DNA of 64,000 nt from Patescibacteria group bacterium (GTDB lineage: Bacteria > Patescibacteriota > Patescibacteriia > GWA2-46-9). Shown piece by piece: positions 9,291 to 64,000 of this stretch. Every line of letters starts with the position of its first letter. The first letter of the stretch is position 1. The DNA lies in the NCBI GenBank assembly GCA_041660005.1, contig JBAZXG010000002.1:122037-186036 (forward strand), written 5' to 3'. The notes below the pieces were generated by a model that saw only the letters and a list, made by a program, of their open reading frames with translations, was not told the origin of the DNA and searched no databases. A program made the position numbers and the translations under genes.

Positions 9291-9662
9291 ATTTCTTTGT
9301 GCGGGCAAAGAAATGGACGAAAGAAAGCCCGCCCCGCATCGACGCTCCAGGTCGGCAGTCATTCCGAAACAAACACGGCGGCAATGAACTCGCCTTCAGC
9401 TCAAACAGCATTGCCGCTCAGTCGTGTTCGTTTCGTCTGTCTGTTCTCCCCGGTCGATGAGGGGGTGTTGCAGAGTCCAAATCCCATAGGATCGGCGTCA
9501 GAGCTTGCGATGGAAGTGAGTGCTCTAATCTTTTAGGAGACGGTCGTGGTAATGCGAACAGGGTCTGTGGCGTTTGCTAGTTGTTGATAATTTTTGACTT
9601 GCAGTTTTGCCTTTTGATTTTTGAATTACTACTTACCTGTGCAGCCCGAGGACGTTATGTTT
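9289..9662. repeat. R1 composite structured element, copy A (begins with hairpin ccatttctttg-tgcgggca-caaagaaatgg, ends ...cagcccgaggacgttatg)
   Basis: Shares modules with 30523..31007, 48861..49290, 60020..60356: the covarying stem module (c/a)atgaactcg(y)c...caaacagcat; the piece cccataggatcggcgtcagagcttgc (inverted relative to copy D); and gttgataatttttgacttgcagttttg shared with copy B. Confidence 0.8.
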
Positions 9663-9753
9663 GAAAATTTAAAACAATGTTTTTTAAGTGAACAAAAAAT
9701 GAGCACGACGGTTATCGTGCGTAAAGCTTATAGCGTATAACGTATAGCTTATT

Positions 9754-16692: not shown

Positions 16693-16769
16693 TGGTGCCC
16701 TCGGCAGGAATCGAACCTGCAACCTTATGGGTAGAAACCATACGCTCTATCCAATTGAGCTACGAGGGC
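16693..16769 (-). tRNA. tRNA-Arg (anticodon UCU)
   Basis: Minus-strand cloverleaf GCCCUCG...CGAGGGC-A-CCA, D arm GCUC-AAUUGGAUA-GAGC, anticodon stem UAUGG/CCAUA loop UUUCUAC, T arm GCAGG-UUCGAUU-CCUGC. Confidence 0.85.
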
Positions 16770-16917: not shown

Positions 16918-17035
16918 ATTATTTATTTTTGCCAATACCTCGTCGGCTTGCCGCGAAGATGTCATATACTGAGGCAAAAATATCCCTCGTAGCCGAGTTT
17001 GACTCGGCGAAGTGGGATTACCTAGTTTTCCCGTG
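16918..17035. repeat. R2 structured element, copy 1 (atttttgcc...cctcgtcggcttgccgcgagg...ggcaaaaat...gcgaagtgggattacct)
   Basis: Same element at 30231..30390 and 47963..48054; nested inverted repeats (9-bp outer stem, inner hairpin CCTCG(T)CGG-CTTG-CCGCGAGG). Confidence 0.8.
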
Positions 17036-17983
17036 AAACTGTTCGTGAACGTGACGCAGCTGTTGGTCGGTGAGGTGCGTGTAAATTTGCGTTGTGGTTA
17101 CTGAAGCGTGACCAAGAAGACTCTGCACTGACCGAAGATCAGCACCGTTAATAAGAAGGTCAGTGGCGAACGAGTGGCGGAGCGTATGCGGGCTCACTTT
17201 TTTTGTGATGCCGGCAACCTTGGCGTAGCGGCTGACGATGCGTTCAATACTGCGTGGTGTTAGTGGTGCGCCGCCCTCTTTGCGCTCGCGTTCCGTTTGT
17301 TTTGTCTTGGCGCGATCGTGGCGAATAAAAAGATAGGGCGAGGCGTCATGTCGCGCTTCAATATAAGAGCGAAGCAGCGCACGAGCGTCAGAAGAAAGAA
17401 ATACCACGCGCACCTTGCTACCCTTACCACGAACGCTGAATTCGGTGAGTGTATGCGCTTTGGTGTCGCGCAGGTTCACTTGGTCAATTTTTAAGTTTGC
17501 CAACTCAGAGACGCGCAGACCAGTTGAAAATGTTGATGCCAGCATCGCTTGGTCGCGTAGCATGAGAATTTTGGGCTGCTTCACGAGCGTTGGCGCGTTA
17601 AGTAGGCGTTCTAGTTCCGTGCTACTTAGAAATTCAATGGAGCGATCTGGCATTTTCATGAGTTCAATTTTCTCTGGCGCGAGACTCGTGACATCGCGCT
17701 TCGCTAGATATTTCAAAAATGAGCGCAGAGCAATGAGATGGTAATTCTGTGTATTTTTTTTAAGCGACTCACCCCGCGCATCAGTTAAACGATTCAGCCA
17801 TAGGCGATATTGCCGTATCAGCTCCGCGGATAGGTCTTTCGCATTTTTACTGCCACGTTCCTCGGCCCAGGCAACAAACCGATCAAGGTAGAAACTATAA
17901 TTGCGAATAGTCGCCGCGCTGCGGTTTCTTTCTATTTCTAAATATTCTAAAAATTCTTTGCGATAACGTTCGAGGTCGGCCAT
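17018..17983 (-). CDS. tyrosine recombinase XerC/XerD family
   Basis: C-terminal catalytic HTLRHSFATDLL...LLGHASVTTTQIYTH; N-terminal core-binding domain; start at MADLERY. Confidence 0.85.
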   Translation of the reverse strand: MADLERYRKEFLEYLEIERNRSAATIRNYSFYLDRFVAWAEERGSKNAKDLSAELIRQYRLWLNRLTDARGESLKKNTQNYHLIALRSFLKYLAKRDVTSLAPEKIELMKMPDRSIEFLSSTELERLLNAPTLVKQPKILMLRDQAMLASTFSTGLRVSELANLKIDQVNLRDTKAHTLTEFSVRGKGSKVRVVFLSSDARALLRSYIEARHDASPYLFIRHDRAKTKQTERERKEGGAPLTPRSIERIVSRYAKVAGITKKVSPHTLRHSFATDLLINGADLRSVQSLLGHASVTTTQIYTHLTDQQLRHVHEQFHGKTR

Positions 17984-18611
17984 AGCAGTATTGTACGACA
18001 CAACAGAGTGTGTGGCTACTTTACATCGAAGATGACTTTGCGTTGATGCAGTGTTGCGTCGTGAGGAAGGAATAGTGCTGCGCGACGTGGTGTTGCTATT
18101 TTTGGCTGGCACGGTCGAGGGTTACTATTCAACACGTTATTAGGTCTATATCCTTTCACTCCTGAAGTTTACTGAAGGACATCTCCACAAGAAGAGGGCA
18201 AGAAGTTTGACCGCTCGTTTTCCGTCGCACACTACCGTGACCCATAAACCAATGGTGTTCGAGCGACATCACAAGGCTAGTATCTCTCGAAGTGAAGCCA
18301 TGATCGTGTCTGCATAAGCTGGATACAAAAAGCTGTGAATATTGAGAGAAAAAGAAAAAGACCCCCCGGCGCAGAGAAAAAATTTGCGCCGAAGGGTCGA
18401 GGTGATCGAGGATCAAGTCCTCAATTCGATCGAATGAATTGTGCTGTTACTACTGCACAAACGCGGACGCTCCTCCATAGCGTTTGTCTGTGTCGCCTTC
18501 TGCAAAACTAATATCGTAATCGAGTCGGCCGTTACGGATGCGCCAGTGGGCAGCCCCATAGAAGGATAAACCGGAGCCGCCGTAGTTACGGCGGAGGCGG
18601 AAAGACCACAC

Positions 18612-30210: not shown

Positions 30211-30240
30211 TCTCCGGCCTCTGGCCGGAGTTTATTTTTG
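30211..30240 (+). terminator. recA terminator (ctccggcc-tc-tggccggag + TTTATTTTT) overlapping the start of R2 copy 2
   Basis: Perfect 8-bp stem followed by T-run. Confidence 0.65.
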
Positions 30241-30390
30241 CCTAACCACCTCGTCGGCTTGCCGCGAGGTTACCGTTGCAGAAGACAAAAATATCCCGCG
30301 TAGCTCCCTGACCGTCCGTAGCCTTGCTGTGTCCCGCCGTAGTTTTATACGAGCGGGAGCGAAGGAGGTTAGCGAAGTGGGATTACCTAT
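30231..30390. repeat. R2 structured element, copy 2 (expanded by an internal insertion of about 70 bp)
   Basis: tttatttttgcctaaccacctcgtcggcttgccgcgagg ... gcgaagtgggattacct. Confidence 0.8.
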
Positions 30391-30522: not shown

Positions 30523-31007
30523 AACCTCGCCCCGTCTGACGGGGCTGTGGGTTGCCTACTTTCTTACTCGCCTAAGAAAGTAGGCGGAAAGAACGGCGCC
30601 CCTGTGTCGACACTATCGTCGGCGAACGTTCCTCAGTGCGGGTGGCGACAATGAACTCGTCTTCGTCTCAAACAGCATCGTCGCTTATTCACCCGCACTT
30701 CGTCCGTTCGCTCTCCTCGGTCGGCAATGGGGTTTGGCAGAGTGAAGTGAACAATTCCTTTAGGAAACGGCCGTGGTAACGGGAGCGGCGTCTACGGTGT
30801 TTATTTGCAGTTGATAATTTTTGACTTGCAGTTTTGACTTTTGCCTTTTGATTTATAATTTCTGCTAGCCCATACAGCTCGAGGACGTTATGTTTATGTA
30901 ATGAAACTCCTACAGGATCGGCGTCGGTAATGACCGAAGAGGAACATTCAGGGCGGGATTTCTTTCACCTCTTTCCTTGTCTAAACAAAGAAAGGAGTAC
31001 GGTTTCT
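30523..31007. repeat. R1 composite structured element, copy B
   Basis: hairpin ctactttctta-ctcgcc-taagaaagtag, module gacaatgaactcgtc...caaacagcatcgtcgc, gttgataatttttgacttgcagttttg, cagctcgaggacgttatg, ctcctacaggatcggcgtc, terminal hairpin. Confidence 0.8.
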
Positions 31008-47935: not shown

Positions 47936-47962
47936 AAAACATAATAAGTGATATTTAACCCT

Positions 47963-48054
47963 TTATTTTTGCCAATACCTCGTCGGCTTGCCGCGAGGTT
48001 ACCATATACTGAGGCAAAAATATCCCTCGTAGCTTTAGCGAAGTGGGATTACCT
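47963..48054. repeat. R2 structured element, copy 3
   Basis: ctttatttttgccaatacctcgtcggcttgccgcgaggttaccatatactgaggcaaaaatatccctcgtagctttagcgaagtgggattacct. Confidence 0.85.
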
Positions 48055-48780: not shown

Positions 48781-48860
48781 GCAGTCCCTCCTGGTTTTTT
48801 GCACTGCTGCAGATTAAAATTAGTTTAACGTTATTAAAGACAAAATCAAGTTCAAATTGT

Positions 48861-49290
48861 CCACTTTCTTACTTGTCTAAGAAAGTGGACGGAAAGAATG
48901 ACACCCTGAGGACTCGGCTGTGGGCTTGCTTCATACAGCAGACTGCTGACCATGAACTCGTCATCCGCCCCATAGCGGATTCCTCAAACAGCATGGTCAC
49001 TAAGTGCAGTCTGCTTCCCTCGCAAGCTTTGACGCCGATCCTAAGGGATTTTGCACTCTGCTCTGCCAAACCCCTGGTGTCCGGTCGTGGCAATGAGGAC
49101 GAAGACAGGACGAAAGAAAACAAGAGCATGTGTGAGATGAACCACAAGGTGAGGCGAGTTTGCTCTTGTTCGTCCTGCTGAGGAAGGAATGCCCGACCGG
49201 AGCACCCGGGGCGGGCTTCTTTGGGTACTTTCTTGCCCGCACAAGAAAGTACCAACTAGTCGCGAGGGCACAGCCCGAGGACGTTATGAG
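48861..49290. repeat. R1 composite structured element, copy C
   Basis: hairpin ccactttctta-cttgtc-taagaaagtgg; cctgaggactcggctgtgggcttgcttc; gaccatgaactcgtc...caaacagcatggtca; gacgccgatcctaaggg; hairpin gtactttcttg-cccgca-caagaaagtac; cagcccgaggacgttatg. Confidence 0.8.
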
Positions 49291-58888: not shown

Positions 58889-59812
58889 TCAAACAATTGT
58901 CAACCATTTTGTATATTTAGAGTCTCCCGCATGAACAATCTTTCGGTAGCTCTCCTGAAATTTTAAAGTGAGTGCGCCAGCTTTTCCGTTACCGATTTTC
59001 TGGTTATCGACTTGTGAGACAGGCGTGATCTCAACAGCCGTGCCGCAGAAGAACACCTCATCTGCTTTTTTTAATTCAGCAAGCGTAATATTTTTTTCTA
59101 TAACCTTGATGCCGCTCTTCCGCGCCAGGGAAAATATTGTGTCGCGGGTGATGCCTGGAAGCACACTGGCAGCGTGAGGTGTGTAGAGTCGTCCCTTTTT
59201 CACCATGAAAATATTTTCAACCGGCCCTTCGGTAACATATCCTTTGGCGTCAAGTAAAATCGCTTCGTCATAGCCAAATTTTTTCGCTTCTAAAGTAGCG
59301 AGAATGGAAGTTGCATAATAACCAGATACTTTGGTATTGAAAACAATAGAAGCTGGATCTCGCCAGCGAATTGATGAGCAGTGAACGCGAATCGCTTTGG
59401 TTTCAAAATGTTGCGGCCATGACCAGGTGGCAAGTGCCACATGCACCGGACAGCCGACTGGCGCCATGCCCATGCGGCTTCCGTAATAAGCGAGTGGTCG
59501 CAAATATCCTTCGCTCAGTTTATTTTTTTTGACGAGTGTTCGTGCAACGTCGGTCAATTGCGCTGTGGTGTAAGGAAGATGCATTCCCATGGCGCGCGCG
59601 GAGCGGAAGAATCGCGCCAGGTGGTCAGAGAGGCGAAAAACAGCAGTACCGTTTTTCGTTTTGTAAAAACGAATGCCCTCATACACTGCGCTGCCATAGT
59701 GGAGACTGTGCGTGAGAATGGGTACATTCGCTTTTGCCATTGGTACGTAGCGTCCATCCACCCAGACAATGCTGGCTTTTGGTGCAACGCTGCGGGAAAG
59801 TTTTTTTTGCAT
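58889..59812 (-). CDS. ilvE: branched-chain amino acid aminotransferase
   Basis: Fold-type IV PLP enzyme; EGYLRP, catalytic Lys region. Confidence 0.85.
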   Translation of the reverse strand: MQKKLSRSVAPKASIVWVDGRYVPMAKANVPILTHSLHYGSAVYEGIRFYKTKNGTAVFRLSDHLARFFRSARAMGMHLPYTTAQLTDVARTLVKKNKLSEGYLRPLAYYGSRMGMAPVGCPVHVALATWSWPQHFETKAIRVHCSSIRWRDPASIVFNTKVSGYYATSILATLEAKKFGYDEAILLDAKGYVTEGPVENIFMVKKGRLYTPHAASVLPGITRDTIFSLARKSGIKVIEKNITLAELKKADEVFFCGTAVEITPVSQVDNQKIGNGKAGALTLKFQESYRKIVHAGDSKYTKWLTIV

Positions 59813-60019
59813 GGGGAGAATAATATATTTTTCTTCTTCTATATTATAGCACCTTAAATTTGTCCTGCGATGCAGGACTGTAATTTGTTCGTTTTCGTCT
59901 TCTTAAGCTGCTAACGTCCTCGGTCCGCCGAGGTGGACCTCGCGACTGTTTGTTACTCTTTTGCGCACCCAAAATTTATTAACAAGAGCAAGTCCGCCAG
60001 AGGCGGATCCGCCTTTGGC

Positions 60020-60356
60020 GGAAAAAGGGTGCCCTGAGGACTCGGCTGTGGGCTTGCTTCGTGCAGCAGGCTGCTGACCATGAACTTGTCGCTTCGCTCC
60101 GCAAACAGCATGGTCATTAAATGCAGCCTGTTTCCCTTGCAAGCTCTGACGCCGATCCTATGGGATGAGCACTTTGCTAAACCCCATTGCCGACCGCGGA
60201 AAGCGAACGGACGAAGTGTGGGTGGTTAAGCGACGGTGTTGTTTGAAGCGGAGCAAGTTCATCGTCGCCATCCACACTGAGGAACGTTCGCCGACGAGAG
60301 TGTCGGCACAGGGCGGGCTTTCTTTCGTCTATTTCTTTGCCCGCACAAAGAAATAG
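60020..60356. repeat. R1 composite structured element, copy D (left half like copy C; right half is the reverse complement of the copy-B module)
   Basis: cctgaggactcggctgtgggcttgcttc; gaccatgaacttgtc...caaacagcatggtca; gacgccgatcctatggg; inverted B-like segment; terminal hairpin ctatttctttg-cccgca-caaagaaatag. Confidence 0.8.
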
Positions 60357-60418
60357 ACAACTTAATTTGTATTTGCGATTTCGCAAAAAATGTGCTAAAA
60401 TAAAAAAACTATCATTCT

Positions 60419-61921
60419 ATGCAACCAAAGAGAAACGAGGACTCATCACAAGCGGTGCGCCTTTTTCAGACCAAGAAGAGTGAATACTGGGTCCGCTCGG
60501 GCCAAGCAAATGCTATCTCACTTTTTAAAAAAGCGGCTCGGCTCGTTCCTGCCTATCGTCATTTTTTAAAAAAACATCGGGTGAACCCTTCCAAGATTCG
60601 CACCTGGAACGATTTTCAACACCTGCCGACCATTGATAGGAAGAACTACCTTACGCAGTATCCGCTGGAAAATTTAGTTTGGCCGACAGCGTTTGATTCA
60701 GGAACCGTGTTATCGGCTACTTCAGGTTCTTCGGGTGCGCCATTCTATTTTCCACGCAGCGCAGCTGTTGACGCACATTCTTCTGCCTATCATCGATGGT
60801 TTCTGTCACACCGATCAGCGGGCAAACGTGATCGCACACTCGTCATCGACTGCTTTGGTATGGGTGTATGGATCGGCGGCATAATTACCTATCAAGCATT
60901 TCGGAATATCGCCGACGAGGGTTATCCGCTTACCATTATTACCCCTGGCGTCAACAAGAAGCAGATTTTTGAATCGCTGGTGAATGTCGCTCCAAAGTTT
61001 TCAACGGTTGTTCTTTGCGGTTATCCGCCGTTTCTGAAAGATGTCATTGACCAGGCGGCAGACAATGGCGTGCGTTGGTCGACACTCAATCTCAAGTTTC
61101 TTTTTGCGGCTGAACCGTTCTCGGAAAAGTTTCGACAGTACGTCGTGGAGAAAACGAATGTGCACAATCACTACACCGACACCACCAACGTTTACGGCAG
61201 CGCCGACCTTGGCACCATGGCGCTCGAAACGCCGCTTACTATTTTGATGCGTGAAATTGCACTCGGGGACAAGAATATCTATCAGCGCTTTTTTCAAAAA
61301 GTTGACCGCTTGCCGACGTTGGCTCAGTTCAACCCACAGGCGGTTCAGTTTGAAGCGCCGGAGGGGAACGTCCTCTGCACGGGCAATAGCAGCTTGCCGC
61401 TCATTCGTTATGCCATTGGTGACAACGGTGCGGTGGCCAGTTTTGACGAAGCAGCTGATGTGTTTACGCATGACAAAATTAATTTGCGCCAAGCGGCGCG
61501 TCGTGCCGATATTAGCAAAACGCTTGCTGAGCTACCTTTTGTGTACATTTACGAACGCTCAGACCTTTCGACGAAGCTCTACGGCGCAACCATTTACCCC
61601 GAACATTTGAAAGATGCGTTACGTGAATCGCCACTGGATCGCTCACTCACCGGCAATTTTACTTTGCGGACAAAATATGACCGACACGAAAACGAATACC
61701 TCGAGGTTAACATCGAGCTCCGCCCGAAGATTAAAGCCAGCCGTACATTGAAAGGGCTCCTTGTAGAAAAAATTACGGCTGCGTTTATGGAGAAAAATGC
61801 GGAGTACAGGAATAACATGCATGTCATGCCCGAACGCATGCGACCGCATTTGGTGTTTTGGCAGCATGAGCACCCGCTCCATTTCAGCCGCGGGGCAAAA
61901 CATAAGTGGGCAAAGCACTAA
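60419..61921 (+). CDS. adenylate-forming enzyme, phenylacetate-CoA ligase / coenzyme F390 synthetase (PaaK/CapK) family
   Basis: ATSGSSGAPFYFP (P-loop equivalent), YGSADLG, LPLIRYAIGD hinge motif. Confidence 0.7.
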   Translation: MQPKRNEDSSQAVRLFQTKKSEYWVRSGQANAISLFKKAARLVPAYRHFLKKHRVNPSKIRTWNDFQHLPTIDRKNYLTQYPLENLVWPTAFDSGTVLSATSGSSGAPFYFPRSAAVDAHSSAYHRWFLSHRSAGKRDRTLVIDCFGMGVWIGGIITYQAFRNIADEGYPLTIITPGVNKKQIFESLVNVAPKFSTVVLCGYPPFLKDVIDQAADNGVRWSTLNLKFLFAAEPFSEKFRQYVVEKTNVHNHYTDTTNVYGSADLGTMALETPLTILMREIALGDKNIYQRFFQKVDRLPTLAQFNPQAVQFEAPEGNVLCTGNSSLPLIRYAIGDNGAVASFDEAADVFTHDKINLRQAARRADISKTLAELPFVYIYERSDLSTKLYGATIYPEHLKDALRESPLDRSLTGNFTLRTKYDRHENEYLEVNIELRPKIKASRTLKGLLVEKITAAFMEKNAEYRNNMHVMPERMRPHLVFWQHEHPLHFSRGAKHKWAKH

Positions 61922-63135
61922 TTTATTCCATTGTAACCATGACGCAAGAACTAAGTTCGGTATTGAGCACGTTAGCGGGTGAGCGGTCACCATCAAAGCC
62001 CCAACTTTTTAATTTGGCTGAAGAAAATGACCGAGCCCAGGTTTCAGCGCTTCTTCAAGGCAACAAAATTCAGCAGGTGGTTGATGATTATCGTGAACAG
62101 CTTGTCGAACTCTACCAAATAGAGCATCCGGCAAACGTCTACGCGCCGACATTCGTCGCCGAGCTTGAAGCACACCTCGCAGCGCTGGAAAAAGAAGCGC
62201 CATTATGGTCTCGCGGTCGTTGGGCGTTTTTTCCATGGATTGGGACTATCGTGCACGTGCTTGAGGAAGCGCCGTTTCAAACTGTTCGTACTGCTCGCAA
62301 TCGAAATTTAATTACCGAAGCGGAACAGAAAAAGTTTTATAACACCGTTGTGGGTATCGCCGGGCTAAGCGTGGGGAATAGTGTGGCGCTTGCTATTGTG
62401 CTCCAGGGTGGAGCCAGGCATATTCGCCTAGCTGATCATGACGCCTTGGCGCTTTCCAACACGAACCGCGTGCGAGCTGGAGTAGCGGATCTTGGTTTGC
62501 CGAAAGTGGAAATGACCGCGCGGCAAATTTATCTCTTGAATCCTTACGCAACCGTCGAGCTGTTTCCCGACGGGATTACCAAAGACAACATTGCAGCATT
62601 TTTTGAAGGACCGCCGAAGCTCGATGTCGTCATCGACGAGGTTGATAATTTGGCGGTTAAATATCTTATTCGCGAGCAGGCAAAAAAACACCGATTGCCA
62701 ATTGTCATGGCGGCTGACAACGGCGACAACGCCGTGGTGGATATTGAGCGCTATGACCAAAATCCTGATCTGGCGTTTTTTCAGGGACGGCTCGGGGATG
62801 TTACCTATGAGGAGTTGCTGTCGCTTGATAAATTTGGTATCGGCAAAATGATTACCAAACATGTCGGGCCAGAAAATGTTACCGAGCGCATGCAGCAGTC
62901 TTTGCTGGAGATGGGTAAGACCATTGTCTCTTGGCCGCAGTTGGGCGGCGCGGCGCTTTTGAATGGTGCAGCCGTTGCCTATGCCGTGCGCAAAATTATC
63001 ATTGACGAGCCACTTGAGGACAACCGGGCGCTCATATCTTTGGACGAGAAATTAATACCGACGTACAATAGTGAAGCCGAGCAGGCGAAGCGTGCATCTG
63101 TTGCGGCAACGTTCCGAAAAATTTTTGGCCTTTAG
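61906..63135 (+). CDS. ThiF/MoeB (E1-like) family protein with N-terminal extension
   Basis: VGIAGLSVGNSVALAIVLQGGARHIRLADHDALALSNTNR nucleotide-binding motif; start may be at 61939. Confidence 0.7.
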   Translation: MGKALIYSIVTMTQELSSVLSTLAGERSPSKPQLFNLAEENDRAQVSALLQGNKIQQVVDDYREQLVELYQIEHPANVYAPTFVAELEAHLAALEKEAPLWSRGRWAFFPWIGTIVHVLEEAPFQTVRTARNRNLITEAEQKKFYNTVVGIAGLSVGNSVALAIVLQGGARHIRLADHDALALSNTNRVRAGVADLGLPKVEMTARQIYLLNPYATVELFPDGITKDNIAAFFEGPPKLDVVIDEVDNLAVKYLIREQAKKHRLPIVMAADNGDNAVVDIERYDQNPDLAFFQGRLGDVTYEELLSLDKFGIGKMITKHVGPENVTERMQQSLLEMGKTIVSWPQLGGAALLNGAAVAYAVRKIIIDEPLEDNRALISLDEKLIPTYNSEAEQAKRASVAATFRKIFGL

Positions 63136-63163
63136 TTAAACTACCCACTTACCGTTTGTCGCT

Positions 63164-64000
63164 ATGGTTCTTGAAGGGAAGATGCGCCAACTCATTACTG
63201 CCGCCACCTTGGCGCCGTCGGGCGAGAATTGTCAGCCCTGGCGTTTTGTGATTAACGGCAATGAATTGCAGCTTTTTAACGTGCCCGAACGAGATGATTC
63301 GCTCTATAACTTTCGTCAGCGCGGGTCATTGGTTGCCCATGGGGCATTACTTGAAAATTTTACAATTGCAGCGAAAGCGCTTGGTTTTAACGCAGACATT
63401 CGGCTTTTCCCTGATGCGCAAAATGAGAATTTAGTTGCCGCCATTCATCTCGAGAACGCTGAACCTGTGGCTGATCCACTCTATGCGGCGATAACCGCGC
63501 GGAGCACGAATCGCAAACCATACGCGAACGAGTCGCTTACTACTAGTGAACGAGAGTCTATTAATGCCGCTGGGGTTTCTACGAGCTGTCGGTTCGTCTT
63601 AATTGAACAGAAAGAATCCATTAGCACGTGGGCCACGGCAGCGAGCGCTAACGAGCGCGTTATGTTTGAGCATCACGGCCTCCATGATTTTTTCTTTTCG
63701 CATCTTAATTGGACAGACGCAGAGGAACAGGAACGACGGCACGGGTTTTACATAAAAACGCTTGAACTCCAACCACCGCAAGTCATCGGCATGAAAATTG
63801 CTAAGCACTGGGCTGTGGCTTCAGTTTTGAACCGCTTGGGTCTTTCTAAACAGGTTGCTGCGGACAATATAAAGTCCAACTCCGCTGCTGCGGCAATTGG
63901 TGGCGTGGTGATTCACGGTGAGCGACCGCAAGATTTTGTTGAGGCCGGTCGCATTGTTGAGCGTGTCTGGCTGACCGTTACGAATTTAGGATTGAGTCTG
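63164..64000 (+). CDS. nitroreductase-family (FMN-dependent) two-domain protein, 3'-truncated by window edge
   Basis: Hand-translated MVLEGKMRQLITAATLAPSGENCQPWRF (nitroreductase SxxNxQPW motif); frame open to end of window. Confidence 0.65.
   Translation, partial: MVLEGKMRQLITAATLAPSGENCQPWRFVINGNELQLFNVPERDDSLYNFRQRGSLVAHGALLENFTIAAKALGFNADIRLFPDAQNENLVAAIHLENAEPVADPLYAAITARSTNRKPYANESLTTSERESINAAGVSTSCRFVLIEQKESISTWATAASANERVMFEHHGLHDFFFSHLNWTDAEEQERRHGFYIKTLELQPPQVIGMKIAKHWAVASVLNRLGLSKQVAADNIKSNSAAAAIGGVVIHGERPQDFVEAGRIVERVWLTVTNLGLSL

Follow-up and report, generated by a model that had tools for sequence, protein, structure and literature searches.

In a Uhrbacteria-related Patescibacteria genome, three adjacent genes, designated g1, g2 and g3, encode the enzymes of an operon of five genes that ends with a histidine kinase and a response regulator; the cassette is found throughout the phylum. 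The three genes lie at the end of the window, i.e., the whole 64,000-nucleotide stretch of DNA that was analysed. As judged by sequence homology, the ThiF-like protein g2 and the nitroreductase-fold protein g3 together constitute a split relative of the oxazolone synthetases (TrzS/Rv1355c, TyzB + TyzC, OxzB). That the two operate in an oxazolone-type pathway fed by the ligase g1, with the kinase as a sensor of the product, is a proposal with about an even chance of being correct. The cassette is not described in the literature searched.

Organization and conservation of the cassette

The features of the locus are as follows; coordinates beyond 64000 are window-equivalent positions outside the window.

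58889-59812, minus strand: branched-chain amino-acid aminotransferase, class IV, divergent from g1
About 59814-60372: R1 copy D, a repeat just upstream of g1
60373-60401, plus strand: promoter-like site from a consensus scan (TTGCGA, 17-nt spacer, TAAAAT, extended -10 TG)
60419-61921, plus strand: g1, 500 aa, includes LPLIRYAIGD
61939-63135, plus strand: g2, 398 aa from the ATG at 61939 (alternative GTG start at 61906)
63164-64000 (window end), plus strand: g3, first 279 of 358 aa, includes SGENCQPWRF
64243-65937: HisKA_7TM histidine kinase, downstream of g3 on contig L001
65954-66733: REC-REC response regulator, on contig L001
About 66777-66804: terminator-like hairpin after the response regulator

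The initial annotation described three co-directional genes for a ligase, a ThiF-like protein and a nitroreductase. The ORFs, all three on the plus strand, and the domain calls hold, as does the spacing of 28 nt between g2 and g3. A 15-nt overlap between g1 and g2 had also been claimed. Translation from the GTG at 61906 gives a g2 of 409 aa and an overlap of 16 nt; since homologues of g2 are 393-398 aa long and an independent gene call starts at the ATG at 61939, leaving a gap of 17 nt, the overlap is probably not real. The expectation that g3 runs past the window is borne out by contig L001, which is 100% identical over 3669 nt and was used to extend the window. There, g3 is complete at 358 aa, with its stop at window-equivalent 64240.

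Upstream of g1, the presence of R1 copy D was correctly noted. This repeat is an insertion absent from the closest syntenic relative, and in the window it separates the aminotransferase gene from g1. Similarity to the syntenic Uhrbacteria locus L002 restarts after the insertion, at 60373. The promoter-like site that begins at this position ends 17 nt before the start of g1, with a single-site count just slightly over the shuffle mean, which makes it weak evidence by itself. The aminotransferase matches Pfam Aminotran_4 at 180 bits and NCBIfam TIGR01122 (ilvE_I) at 340 bits against a cut-off of 245, and members of its family (cluster c31) adjoin g1 in loci L002, L048, L050 and L017.

Conservation was counted in those Patescibacteria species loci, 47 in number, whose downstream sequence extends for 6 kb or more. 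A g2 gene is found in 46 of these loci, g3 in 41, the kinase in 43, and all three in 40. The genes are co-directional in the order g1-g2-g3-kinase throughout, with median gaps of 5-10 nt. Dozens of species show this same gene order, which is very unlikely to have arisen by chance. The idea of a biosynthetic set of three functionally linked genes is supported. Inside the cassette, no further family is conserved, and neither a 2-oxoacid oxidoreductase nor paa catabolic genes are; nor is there a conserved fatty-acyl or acyl-CoA enzyme nearby.

Gene fusions provide a second line of evidence. Four independent types occur in Patescibacteria (ELFV-DH~g1, g1~ThiF, ThiF~g1 and ELFV-DH~g1~ThiF), and these tie the g1, ThiF and dehydrogenase steps together. 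The fusions were checked on their contigs, and each such locus also has a nitroreductase-fold gene and a HisKA_7TM kinase. In addition, 34 of 70 loci have a gene for an amino-acid dehydrogenase or aminotransferase as the immediate upstream neighbour of g1. Apart from the class IV enzyme, this may be an ELFV amino-acid dehydrogenase, as in 23 loci, or an aminotransferase of class I/II, as in 8. Three non-homologous enzyme types, all of which interconvert amino acids and 2-oxo acids, thus share this position.

Relationship of g2 and g3 to oxazolone synthetases

By homology, g2 is a ThiF/E1-like adenylating cyclase related to the N-terminal half of Rv1355c/TrzS, and g3 is an Acg-like tandem nitroreductase-fold flavoprotein related to the C-terminal, flavin-dependent oxidase (FDO) half. 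The two are collinear with the halves of Rv1355c-family proteins in NCBIfam model NF005901: g2 scores 341 bits over positions 9-352 of 722 and g3 183 bits over positions 374-646, each below the model's cut-off of 476. The next model for g2 reaches just 69 bits. Identity between g2 and a Mycolicibacterium Rv1355c-family protein is 38% over aa 62-336 of the latter, a stretch that also takes in sequence ahead of the ThiF core. That core spans aa 131-270 in the 409-aa form, so the N-terminal extension that had been reported is present, at about 130 rather than roughly 140 aa. The adenylation motifs (G142/G146, D166/D168, N174-x-N176-R177, K189 and E234-x-D236) are common to g2, the Mycolicibacterium protein and a Streptomyces ThiF-like protein.

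For g3, the best NCBIfam score is 200 bits with NF011424, and the Acg family (NF047509) follows NF005901 at 146 bits. This Acg-family tandem nitroreductase model covers g3 over positions 2-265 of 319, and the nearest solved structure is Acg (2YMV). With 183-200 bits for the ThiF-fused oxidases, g3 is only modestly nearer to them than to Acg proteins that stand alone. Across the whole FDO half of the Mycolicibacterium fusion (aa 365-702), it shares 26% identity and retains the FMN-site motifs APSxxNxQPW, R113-x-x-N116-R117 and R332.

On these grounds, the right comparator is a small-molecule oxazolone synthetase, and the characterised relatives of the g2/g3 pair all convert N-acyl amino acids to 5(4H)-oxazolones. 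[quoted passage not shown] The TrzA/TrzS (Rv1356c/Rv1355c) pathway is found in Mycobacterium tuberculosis, M. smegmatis and Rhodococcus (Kleetz et al., JBC 2025, PMC12856293). Whereas TrzS is one protein, the Patescibacteria cassette uses two genes and has a PaaK-fold ligase as an obligate partner. The TrzA/TrzS pathway employs a TrzA-type acyl-CoA N-acyltransferase; two acyltransferase queries, one of them a putative TrzA-like protein, returned nothing relevant for the cassette. Finally, the mycobacterial locus is flanked by c-di-GMP genes rather than a co-transcribed 7TM histidine kinase.

A characterised split form exists in the tyrazolone pathway of M. tuberculosis (JBC 2023, PMC10404671), where the cyclase TyzB and the nitroreductase-superfamily oxidase TyzC (roughly 340 aa) are separate and adjacent, like g2 and g3. 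However, TyzB is shorter (318 aa) than g2 (398 aa), and TyzA supplies N-acyl-tyrosine from lauroyl-CoA, with no ANL ligase or kinase. OxzB of Pseudoalteromonas rubra likewise combines ThiF and nitroreductase functions, converting an N-acyl aromatic amino acid to a 4-arylidene oxazolone (de Rond et al. 2021; 10.1101/2020.06.11.147165), but the two functions are fused in one protein, which works with the N-acyltransferase OxzA. According to a 2025 review, no ThiF-like enzyme other than OxzB is known to have a small-molecule substrate.

The PaaK-fold ligase

The g1 protein is an ANL-superfamily adenylate-forming ligase with a PaaK-type fold, and belongs to a family that occurs mainly in Patescibacteria and lies outside Pfam. 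A Pfam search gave no match, AMP-binding included. Models of PaaK and F390 synthetase match weakly and in the N-terminal half only; the PaaK equivalog scores 54 bits against a cut-off of 646. An AlphaFold2 model (pLDDT 88.6) resembles PaaK-type ligases. The top Foldseek matches are BT_0428 (4r1m), PaaK1/2 (2y27, 2y4o) and 2-hydroxyisobutyryl-CoA ligase, and next after these CoA ligases come the ligase ClxA and McbA, an amide-bond synthetase that works independently of CoA. With PaaK, McbA and ClxA, g1 shares its adenylation motifs and a PaaK-type architecture of two domains (TM about 0.6, E about 1e-19), although identity is only 14-16% and no paa catabolic context surrounds g1.

The family comprises 481 clusters (50% identity) at E<=1e-30. 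Invariant in 76 homologues are S102-G103-S104-x-G106, Y259-G260-x-A262-D263, G334-D335 and K494, and the P-loop, A5, A8 and A10-Lys motifs are intact. The assignment of g1 as an adenylate-forming enzyme is supported.

A proposed pathway

What the data show directly is the homology, the order and conservation of the genes, their fusions and the presence of the catalytic motifs; the substrates, the formation of an amide by g1 and the ring product may be inferred as follows. The g1 ligase would adenylate a carboxylic acid, perhaps a 2-oxo acid or other amino-acid-derived acid, and then acylate an amino acid, hydrophobic or aromatic, at its amino group. This ATP-driven and probably CoA-independent N-acylation would allow g1 to stand in for an acyl-CoA-dependent N-acyltransferase, with an N-acyl amino acid as its most likely product. 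In turn, g2 would activate the carboxylate of the N-acyl amino acid by adenylation, allowing attack by the amide oxygen and closure to a 5(4H)-oxazolone, and g3 would desaturate the C-alpha-C-beta bond. The class IV aminotransferase is probably an accessory enzyme that supplies or consumes an amino acid or 2-oxo acid, interconverting the two to feed the g1 step; elsewhere, a dehydrogenase of the Leu/Phe/Trp type, either fused to g1 or next to it, would take its place.

Some observations count against parts of this scheme. TrzS needs O2, and many Patescibacteria live in anoxic settings. The aminotransferase gene of the window is divergent and sits behind a repeat insertion. Also, g1 might simply be a conventional CoA ligase, with a transferase encoded elsewhere consuming the acyl-CoA that it makes.

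Alternative explanations

A different ring is the first matter to consider. If g1 joined two amino-acid-derived units into a 2-oxoacyl-amino acid or dipeptide-like amide, g2 might form a diketopiperazine-, pyrazinone- or morpholinedione-type ring for dehydrogenation by g3, much as AlbA, a nitroreductase-fold cyclic dipeptide oxidase, acts in albonoursin biosynthesis. The dehydrogenase~g1 fusions and the three kinds of amino-acid/2-oxo-acid enzyme suggest that both building blocks are amino-acid-derived, and no fatty-acyl or acyl-CoA enzyme is conserved nearby. Nevertheless, this is unlikely given that no other ThiF-type model comes near the score of the Rv1355c family for g2, and that the sole characterised relatives of the pair make oxazolones. 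Quite unlikely is a stress or redox module, in which the kinase would sense oxygen, redox or membrane stress and induce an Acg-like flavoprotein and its helpers for detoxification or dormancy, the enzymes not being the source of its ligand. The analogy is to the DosR-controlled Acg proteins of mycobacteria, and the Acg match of g3, the co-transcribed kinase and response regulator, and papers connecting mycobacterial oxazolone loci with stress are all in keeping with it. Yet it leaves the near-obligate g1-g2 pairing, the g1~ThiF fusions and the amino-acid enzymes unexplained, and g3 favours the ThiF-fused oxidase families over Acg. Amino-acid catabolism, with g1 as a true acyl-CoA or aryl-acetate ligase acting on 2-oxo acids from the dehydrogenase or aminotransferase for degradation or energy conservation, and with g2 and g3 unrelated, is very unlikely. 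CoA ligases are indeed the top structural matches of g1, and the amino-acid enzymes are adjacent or fused to it, but the cassette has no conserved 2-oxoacid oxidoreductase or paa genes, the PaaK score is far below cut-off, and fusions of g1 with the ThiF-like enzyme exist in either order.

Modification of a macromolecule is highly improbable. Here, the E1-like g2 would have as its target a protein C-terminus, a carrier of ubiquitin-like or sulfur type, or a tRNA (TcdA-like t6A cyclisation); TcdA is its nearest solved structure by sequence (E = 2e-10), followed by MoeB and ThiF, and PADLOC gives weak matches to CBASS-type E1-E2 defence models. Those matches are <30 bits and confined to the E1 core, however, and the TcdA, MoeB and ThiF models score 35-62 bits, compared with 341 bits for the Rv1355c family. 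The g2 alignment has no conserved Cys or Zn motif, and the g2 of the window no Cys at all, which argues against sulfur-carrier or ubiquitin-like chemistry; gaps of 5-10 nt are too small for a carrier gene. The initial annotation favoured an azole-forming RiPP synthetase (TOMM / microcin B17-type), with a YcaO, precursor peptide or exporter perhaps just downstream. In TOMM systems, an E1-like C protein and a SagB-type B dehydrogenase are the partners of the YcaO D protein. The pairing of an E1-superfamily protein with a nitroreductase-fold FMN dehydrogenase does fit the known logic of heterocyclisation followed by dehydrogenation, but the TOMM reading itself is already contradicted and retains almost no probability. 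The 3.2 kb downstream encodes the HisKA_7TM kinase, the double-REC response regulator and a chorismate mutase. Neither a precursor peptide nor an exporter is encoded there. No YcaO is present in that stretch or among the 20 largest other ORFs of the window, nor is a YcaO-sized family conserved in the 80 related loci; the median gaps leave no room for a precursor gene within the cassette; and neither g2 nor g3 matches an Ocin_ThiF_like, SagB-type or TOMM model (NCBIfam, E<=0.01). Moreover, g2 keeps its adenylation site and is itself the predicted cyclase. No sulfur-carrier context, named beforehand as counting against azole formation, was found at the locus.

A possible signalling role

Under the oxazolone-type proposal, the co-transcribed kinase probably detects the product itself or some lipophilic cue related to it, such that the operon would be a synthase-receptor signalling unit. 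The kinase can be aligned over its full length across loci, 7TM sensor included; the inter-helix loops are short, and the sensor is almost wholly membrane-embedded. Pairs of a synthase and a membrane-sensor kinase are known from quorum sensing (CqsA/CqsS, LuxM/LuxN and agrBDCA). By analogy, the cassette places biosynthetic genes for what would be a small amphipathic molecule beside a kinase with a membrane-helix sensor and no large external domain, although there is no sequence relationship and its response regulators (REC-REC or single REC) carry no output domain. Adjacency of the kinase speaks for co-regulation, not ligand identity, and an unrelated cue may control the operon. If the proposal is true, ultra-small Patescibacteria would make an amino-acid-derived small molecule that may serve as a signal.

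Organization of the locus

The three open reading frames proposed in the initial annotation are all present in the window. They encode a ligase with the PaaK fold (g1), a ThiF/E1-like protein (g2), and a tandem nitroreductase-fold flavoprotein (g3), with an amino acid enzyme encoded upstream.

Genes at the downstream edge of the window
58889–59812, divergent from g1: branched-chain aminotransferase
60419–61921, + strand: g1, 500 aa
61939–63135, + strand: g2, 398 aa from its likeliest start (ATG 61939)
63164 to past the window end, + strand: g3, 358 aa in full on contig L001

The ATG start of g2 agrees with an independent gene call and with the lengths of its homologues (393–398 aa). It is thus preferred to GTG 61906, a less likely start that would make g1 and g2 overlap by 16 nt. 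The 28-nt spacing between g2 and g3 stands.

A public contig (L001, 6.9 kb) that is 100% identical to window positions 60332–64000 across 3669 nt prolongs the locus. On this contig, the gene for a HisKA_7TM histidine kinase begins 2 nt past g3, and that of a REC-REC response regulator follows 16 nt beyond the kinase. The hydropathy profile of the kinase consists of a run of membrane helices joined by short loops, without a large external domain. The response regulator (L001 5623–6402, outside the window) has two receiver domains and no output domain, and linked regulators in other loci are single receiver domains. Since none of these carries an output domain, direct DNA binding is probably not the downstream step of signaling. 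Upstream of g1, no known RNA or riboswitch reached the Rfam gathering threshold, the sole match being a chance miRNA-like one (E = 0.1). The window comes from a Patescibacteria MAG, and the closest relative of this organism is a Candidatus Uhrbacteria genome, with 80% identity in g1.

Beyond the response regulator lie a terminator-like hairpin and then a separate chorismate mutase gene (CM_2; L001 6494–6808, equivalent to window positions 66825–67139). A lone chorismate mutase is odd in a type of genome with little amino acid biosynthesis and, as known oxazolone pathways use aromatic substrates, it is suggestive. It was considered as a pathway member and rejected, since it is not kept in other loci and the hairpin separates it from the operon.

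Repeats near the locus

Two families of repeats occur in the window. R1 is a dispersed intergenic repeat of roughly 300–400 nt, located at ~9300–9690, 30540–30930, 48860–49230, and 59930–60360; it has a conserved core, ATGAACTCGTC...CTCAAACAGCATGGTC, and no match in Rfam. The last copy (copy D) lies between the aminotransferase gene and g1 and ends in a hairpin and T-run at 60327–60358. The syntenic Uhrbacteria locus (L002) has no counterpart of the whole region ~59814–60372, which is therefore an insertion. Copy D was therefore rejected as a part of the operon, as similarity to L002 returns only at 60373, past the repeat. The second family is a 72-nt repeat (69–94% identity) at 16922–16993, 30233–30304, and 47962–48033. 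Its first copy sits between a tRNA gene (16696–16769) and a tyrosine recombinase/integrase gene (17018–18112), a position that hints at an integration site or mobile element.

A conserved cassette in Patescibacteria

Given the tiny genomes and scant biosynthetic capacity of Patescibacteria (the candidate phyla radiation), a specialized-metabolite cassette kept in constant order over many of their lineages comes as a surprise. In a survey of one genome per species, 184 loci with a g1 relative were found, and the best 80 of these were analyzed together with L001 (81 loci), with neighbors counted by ORF clustering and tblastn. All of the best 80 are from Patescibacteria, and the lineages named in their records include Uhrbacteria, Magasanikbacteria, Doudnabacteria, Gracilibacteria, Paceibacteria, Kaiserbacteria, Liptonbacteria, and others. 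Co-directional and 3′ of g1, the 81 loci carry g2 in 77 cases, g3 in 62, and a kinase of the same family in 56. When only the 47 loci with 6 kb or more of sequence downstream are counted, these numbers are 46, 41, and 43, respectively, and 40 of the 47 have all three. Median gaps between successive cassette genes are 5–10 nt, and the kinases align end to end across loci, membrane sensor included. The cassette is flanked by housekeeping genes, such as those for DnaK/GrpE/DnaJ, TrpS, and AspS.

No further family is conserved within the cassette across the 81 loci, except for an optional slot 5′ of the kinase that holds either a protein of ~308 aa (10 loci) or an alpha/beta hydrolase. The ~308-aa protein, located between g3 and the kinase in L005, L007, L016, L022, L024, L036, L080, and other loci, is absent from the window. 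It has no match in Pfam or NCBIfam, and carries a DLGAGG motif that recalls SAM-dependent methyltransferases.

A split cyclase and oxidase

Oxazolone synthesis of the kind relevant here is known from several bacteria, with OxzB of Pseudoalteromonas rubra as the founding member. [quoted passage not shown] Its N-acyl amino acid is made by TrzA, an acyl-CoA-dependent N-acyltransferase (PMC12856293). In TyzB and TyzC, both activities of TrzS reside on separate proteins (PMC10404671). As a physiological role of oxazolones, the primary papers raise signaling only as speculation.

g2 and g3 match the two halves of such a fusion. g2 carries a ThiF domain, and its best NCBIfam family is NF005901, the Rv1355c family (341 bits, model positions 9–352 of 722), followed by a model at 69 bits. 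g3 matches the other half of NF005901 (183 bits, positions 374–646). Alone, each score is below the cut-off of 476 bits, which belongs to a model made for fusions; their sum is 524. A Mycolicibacterium plasmid encodes an Rv1355c-family protein of 708 aa, with which g2 aligns over residues 62–336 (38% identity), including the segment N-terminal of the ThiF core, and g3 over residues 365–702, the whole oxidase half (26% identity). This alignment to successive halves identifies g2 and g3 as a split form of the fusion. g3 also matches NF011424, a second ThiF-nitroreductase fusion family, at 200 bits. It has the tandem nitroreductase architecture of the Acg family of FMN-binding oxidoreductases (DosR regulon), but its score of 146 bits against that family (NF047509) falls short of the 199-bit cut-off.

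The catalytic motifs are intact. g2 shares with the mycobacterial-type protein the Gly-rich loop, DxD, NxNR, Lys, and ExD adenylation motifs, and g3 keeps the flavin-site motifs APSxxNxQPW and RxxNR. Among solved structures, g2 is closest to TcdA and g3 to Acg (2YMV), which is also the reference structure for TrzS. The locus thus has two features of the OxzAB, TyzACB, and TrzAS systems: a ThiF-like, Rv1355c-related cyclase whose adenylation site is intact (g2), and an adjoining flavin-dependent oxidase of the nitroreductase superfamily (g3). Judged from sequence, g2 and g3 probably carry out TrzS-like chemistry, whose O2 requirement may be unsuited to anoxic hosts.

Those systems differ in having an adjoining N-acyltransferase, as none was detected beside g2 and g3. 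Among conserved neighbors in the 81 loci, no family of the OxzA/TyzA/TrzA type of acyl-CoA-dependent N-acyltransferase occurs, and tblastn of the window and 87 Patescibacteria loci with a putative TrzA-like protein and a ThiF-linked Streptomyces GNAT returned nothing relevant. On a plasmid of Streptomyces sp. NBC_01471 (L082 5917–7715), a stand-alone ThiF-like gene overlaps a GNAT acetyltransferase gene. The ThiF-like protein has 38% identity to g2 over 88%, and no nitroreductase-fold gene is annotated nearby. It may represent a version of the oxazolone systems that has the cyclase alone.

The ligase

The obligate third partner is g1, which has an adenylate-forming fold. It has no match in Pfam, and its NCBIfam matches, to PaaK and F390 synthetase, are weak and confined to the N-terminal half (e.g., 54 bits against TIGR02155, the PaaK model, with a cut-off of 646.3). 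A confident AlphaFold2 model built from 76 homologues (pLDDT 88.6) is structurally closest to BT_0428, PaaK1/2, and 2-hydroxyisobutyryl-CoA ligase, followed by the ligase ClxA and by McbA, an amide-bond synthetase. Family members share invariant adenylation motifs, among them the C-terminal lysine K494. With the phenylacetate-CoA ligase PaaK, g1 has only the fold in common, as its score is below the equivalog cut-off and no paa catabolic genes are found among its neighbors.

Among 1.8 billion representative proteins searched, the family forms 481 clusters at E ≤ 1e-30. Outside Patescibacteria, relatives in a plasmid collection come from Nonomuraea (33% identity) and Gemmatirosa (25%), and neither adjoins a ThiF or oxidase gene. 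The nearer of the two, from Nonomuraea gerenzanensis (L084 6705–10374; 33% identity over 94%), lacks a ThiF or nitroreductase neighbor and lies directly 3′ of a HisKA_3 kinase and a LuxR-type response regulator. This neighborhood may be a coincidence, or may reflect a wider tie of the ligase family to two-component systems.

Amino acid enzymes and natural fusions

Upstream sequence suffices in 70 loci, and in 34 of these g1 is immediately preceded by a gene for an enzyme that interconverts amino acids and 2-oxo acids. Three unrelated types fill this slot: ELFV-family dehydrogenases of the Leu/Phe/Trp type (23 loci), class I/II aminotransferases (8 loci), and class IV branched-chain aminotransferases (3 loci). 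The best NCBIfam match of the dehydrogenase is the tryptophan dehydrogenase ScyB (266 bits, under the model cut-off).

Four kinds of natural fusion are found among the best matches of the representative-protein search, each with an intact translation from its own contig.

Natural fusions involving g1
L086, 6001–9729: ELFV dehydrogenase, g1, and ThiF, 1242 aa
L090, 6001–8544: ELFV dehydrogenase and g1, 847 aa
L089, 1114–3705: g1 and ThiF, 863 aa
L088, 4095–6737: ThiF and g1, 880 aa

The two fusion contigs with source names are from Patescibacteria or Parcubacteria. All four loci share a second cassette layout, in which a nitroreductase-fold gene precedes the fusion, and genes for an alpha/beta hydrolase and then a HisKA_7TM kinase follow it. 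The fusions indicate that g1, the cyclase, and the amino acid enzyme are steps of one pathway.

Alternative interpretations

A ThiF-like protein beside a nitroreductase-like one had suggested an azole-forming peptide (TOMM) synthetase with a YcaO, precursor peptide, or exporter just downstream. The L001 extension instead shows the kinase, response regulator, and chorismate mutase, and none of these partners. Nor is a YcaO encoded by any of the 20 largest remaining ORFs in the window, all of which are housekeeping (Ddl, MgtE, PurD, GuaA, PNPase, FtsK, RecA, RecQ, SHMT, MurD, GDH, RelA/SpoT, and others), and no YcaO-sized neighbor is conserved across 80 related loci. No precursor peptide gene was found, the cassette gaps being as short as they are, and SagB-type, Ocin_ThiF-like, and other TOMM-specific NCBIfam models gave no match at E ≤ 0.01.

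Activation of a sulfur carrier or ubiquitin-like protein was rejected as well. The MoeB/ThiF models do match g2, at 35–62 bits only, and g2 lacks a conserved Cys/Zn motif. The window copy has no cysteine at all, and 64 homologues have 0–3 per protein with none conserved, which counts against sulfur-carrier or thioester chemistry. A conserved small gene for a MoaD, ThiS, or ubiquitin-like partner is likewise missing from the cassette, which has no room for one. Anti-phage defense was also rejected, as PADLOC gave g2 only generic E1-core matches below 30 bits and gave g1 and g3 none. The remaining rivals to oxazolone synthesis are that the same enzymes make a different heterocycle, that the cassette is a stress or redox module, that it serves amino acid catabolism, or that it modifies a macromolecule.

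A proposed pathway and its significance

For oxazolone synthesis, g1 would stand in for the acyl-CoA N-acyltransferase by adenylating a carboxylic acid and using it to acylate a hydrophobic or aromatic amino acid at the amino group. g2 would then adenylate the N-acyl amino acid and close the oxazolone ring, which g3 would desaturate. The adjoining dehydrogenase or aminotransferase may supply one building block, and the acyl donor could itself come from an amino acid, as a 2-oxo acid. Finally, the kinase might sense the product or control its synthesis.

These steps differ in strength. The operon structure with the kinase, the intact catalytic motifs, the fusions, and the homology of g2 and g3 to a characterized cyclase-oxidase are observed. 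Amide formation by g1 is a tentative assignment that falls slightly short of an even chance, and sensing of the product by the kinase is doubtful, as adjacency alone names no ligand. The combined statement on g1, g2, g3, and the kinase is evenly balanced between right and wrong. The cyclase-oxidase pair is already known, and the novelty lies in the phylum, in the enzyme proposed for acylation, and in the kinase wired into the operon. No link of Patescibacteria with oxazolones, a g1-type ligase, or a HisKA_7TM sensor was found in the searchable literature, and neither the three papers on oxazolones nor a 2025 review on ThiF mentions a form coupled to a ligase or a kinase.

If this reading holds, ThiF-plus-flavoprotein oxazolone chemistry, so far known from Actinomycetota and Proteobacteria, would reach a very different branch of bacteria. 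It would also provide a new route to N-acyl amino acids through an ATP-dependent ligase outside Pfam, a link supported by the fusions to the cyclase and dehydrogenase. The fused forms and small operon would be handy constructs for heterologous expression, and the near-invariant, co-transcribed sensor kinase would make the signaling idea directly testable. The boldest version, an unlikely one, is a self-contained signaling circuit of Patescibacteria, in which an amino-acid-derived oxazolone or closely related heterocycle is made by a new ligase family and a split oxazolone synthetase, with no use of acyl-CoA, and is detected by a co-transcribed 7TM histidine kinase. Were it true, the kinase would be the first dedicated receptor for oxazolones, and these ultra-small episymbionts would use the product to communicate with one another or to read their host.
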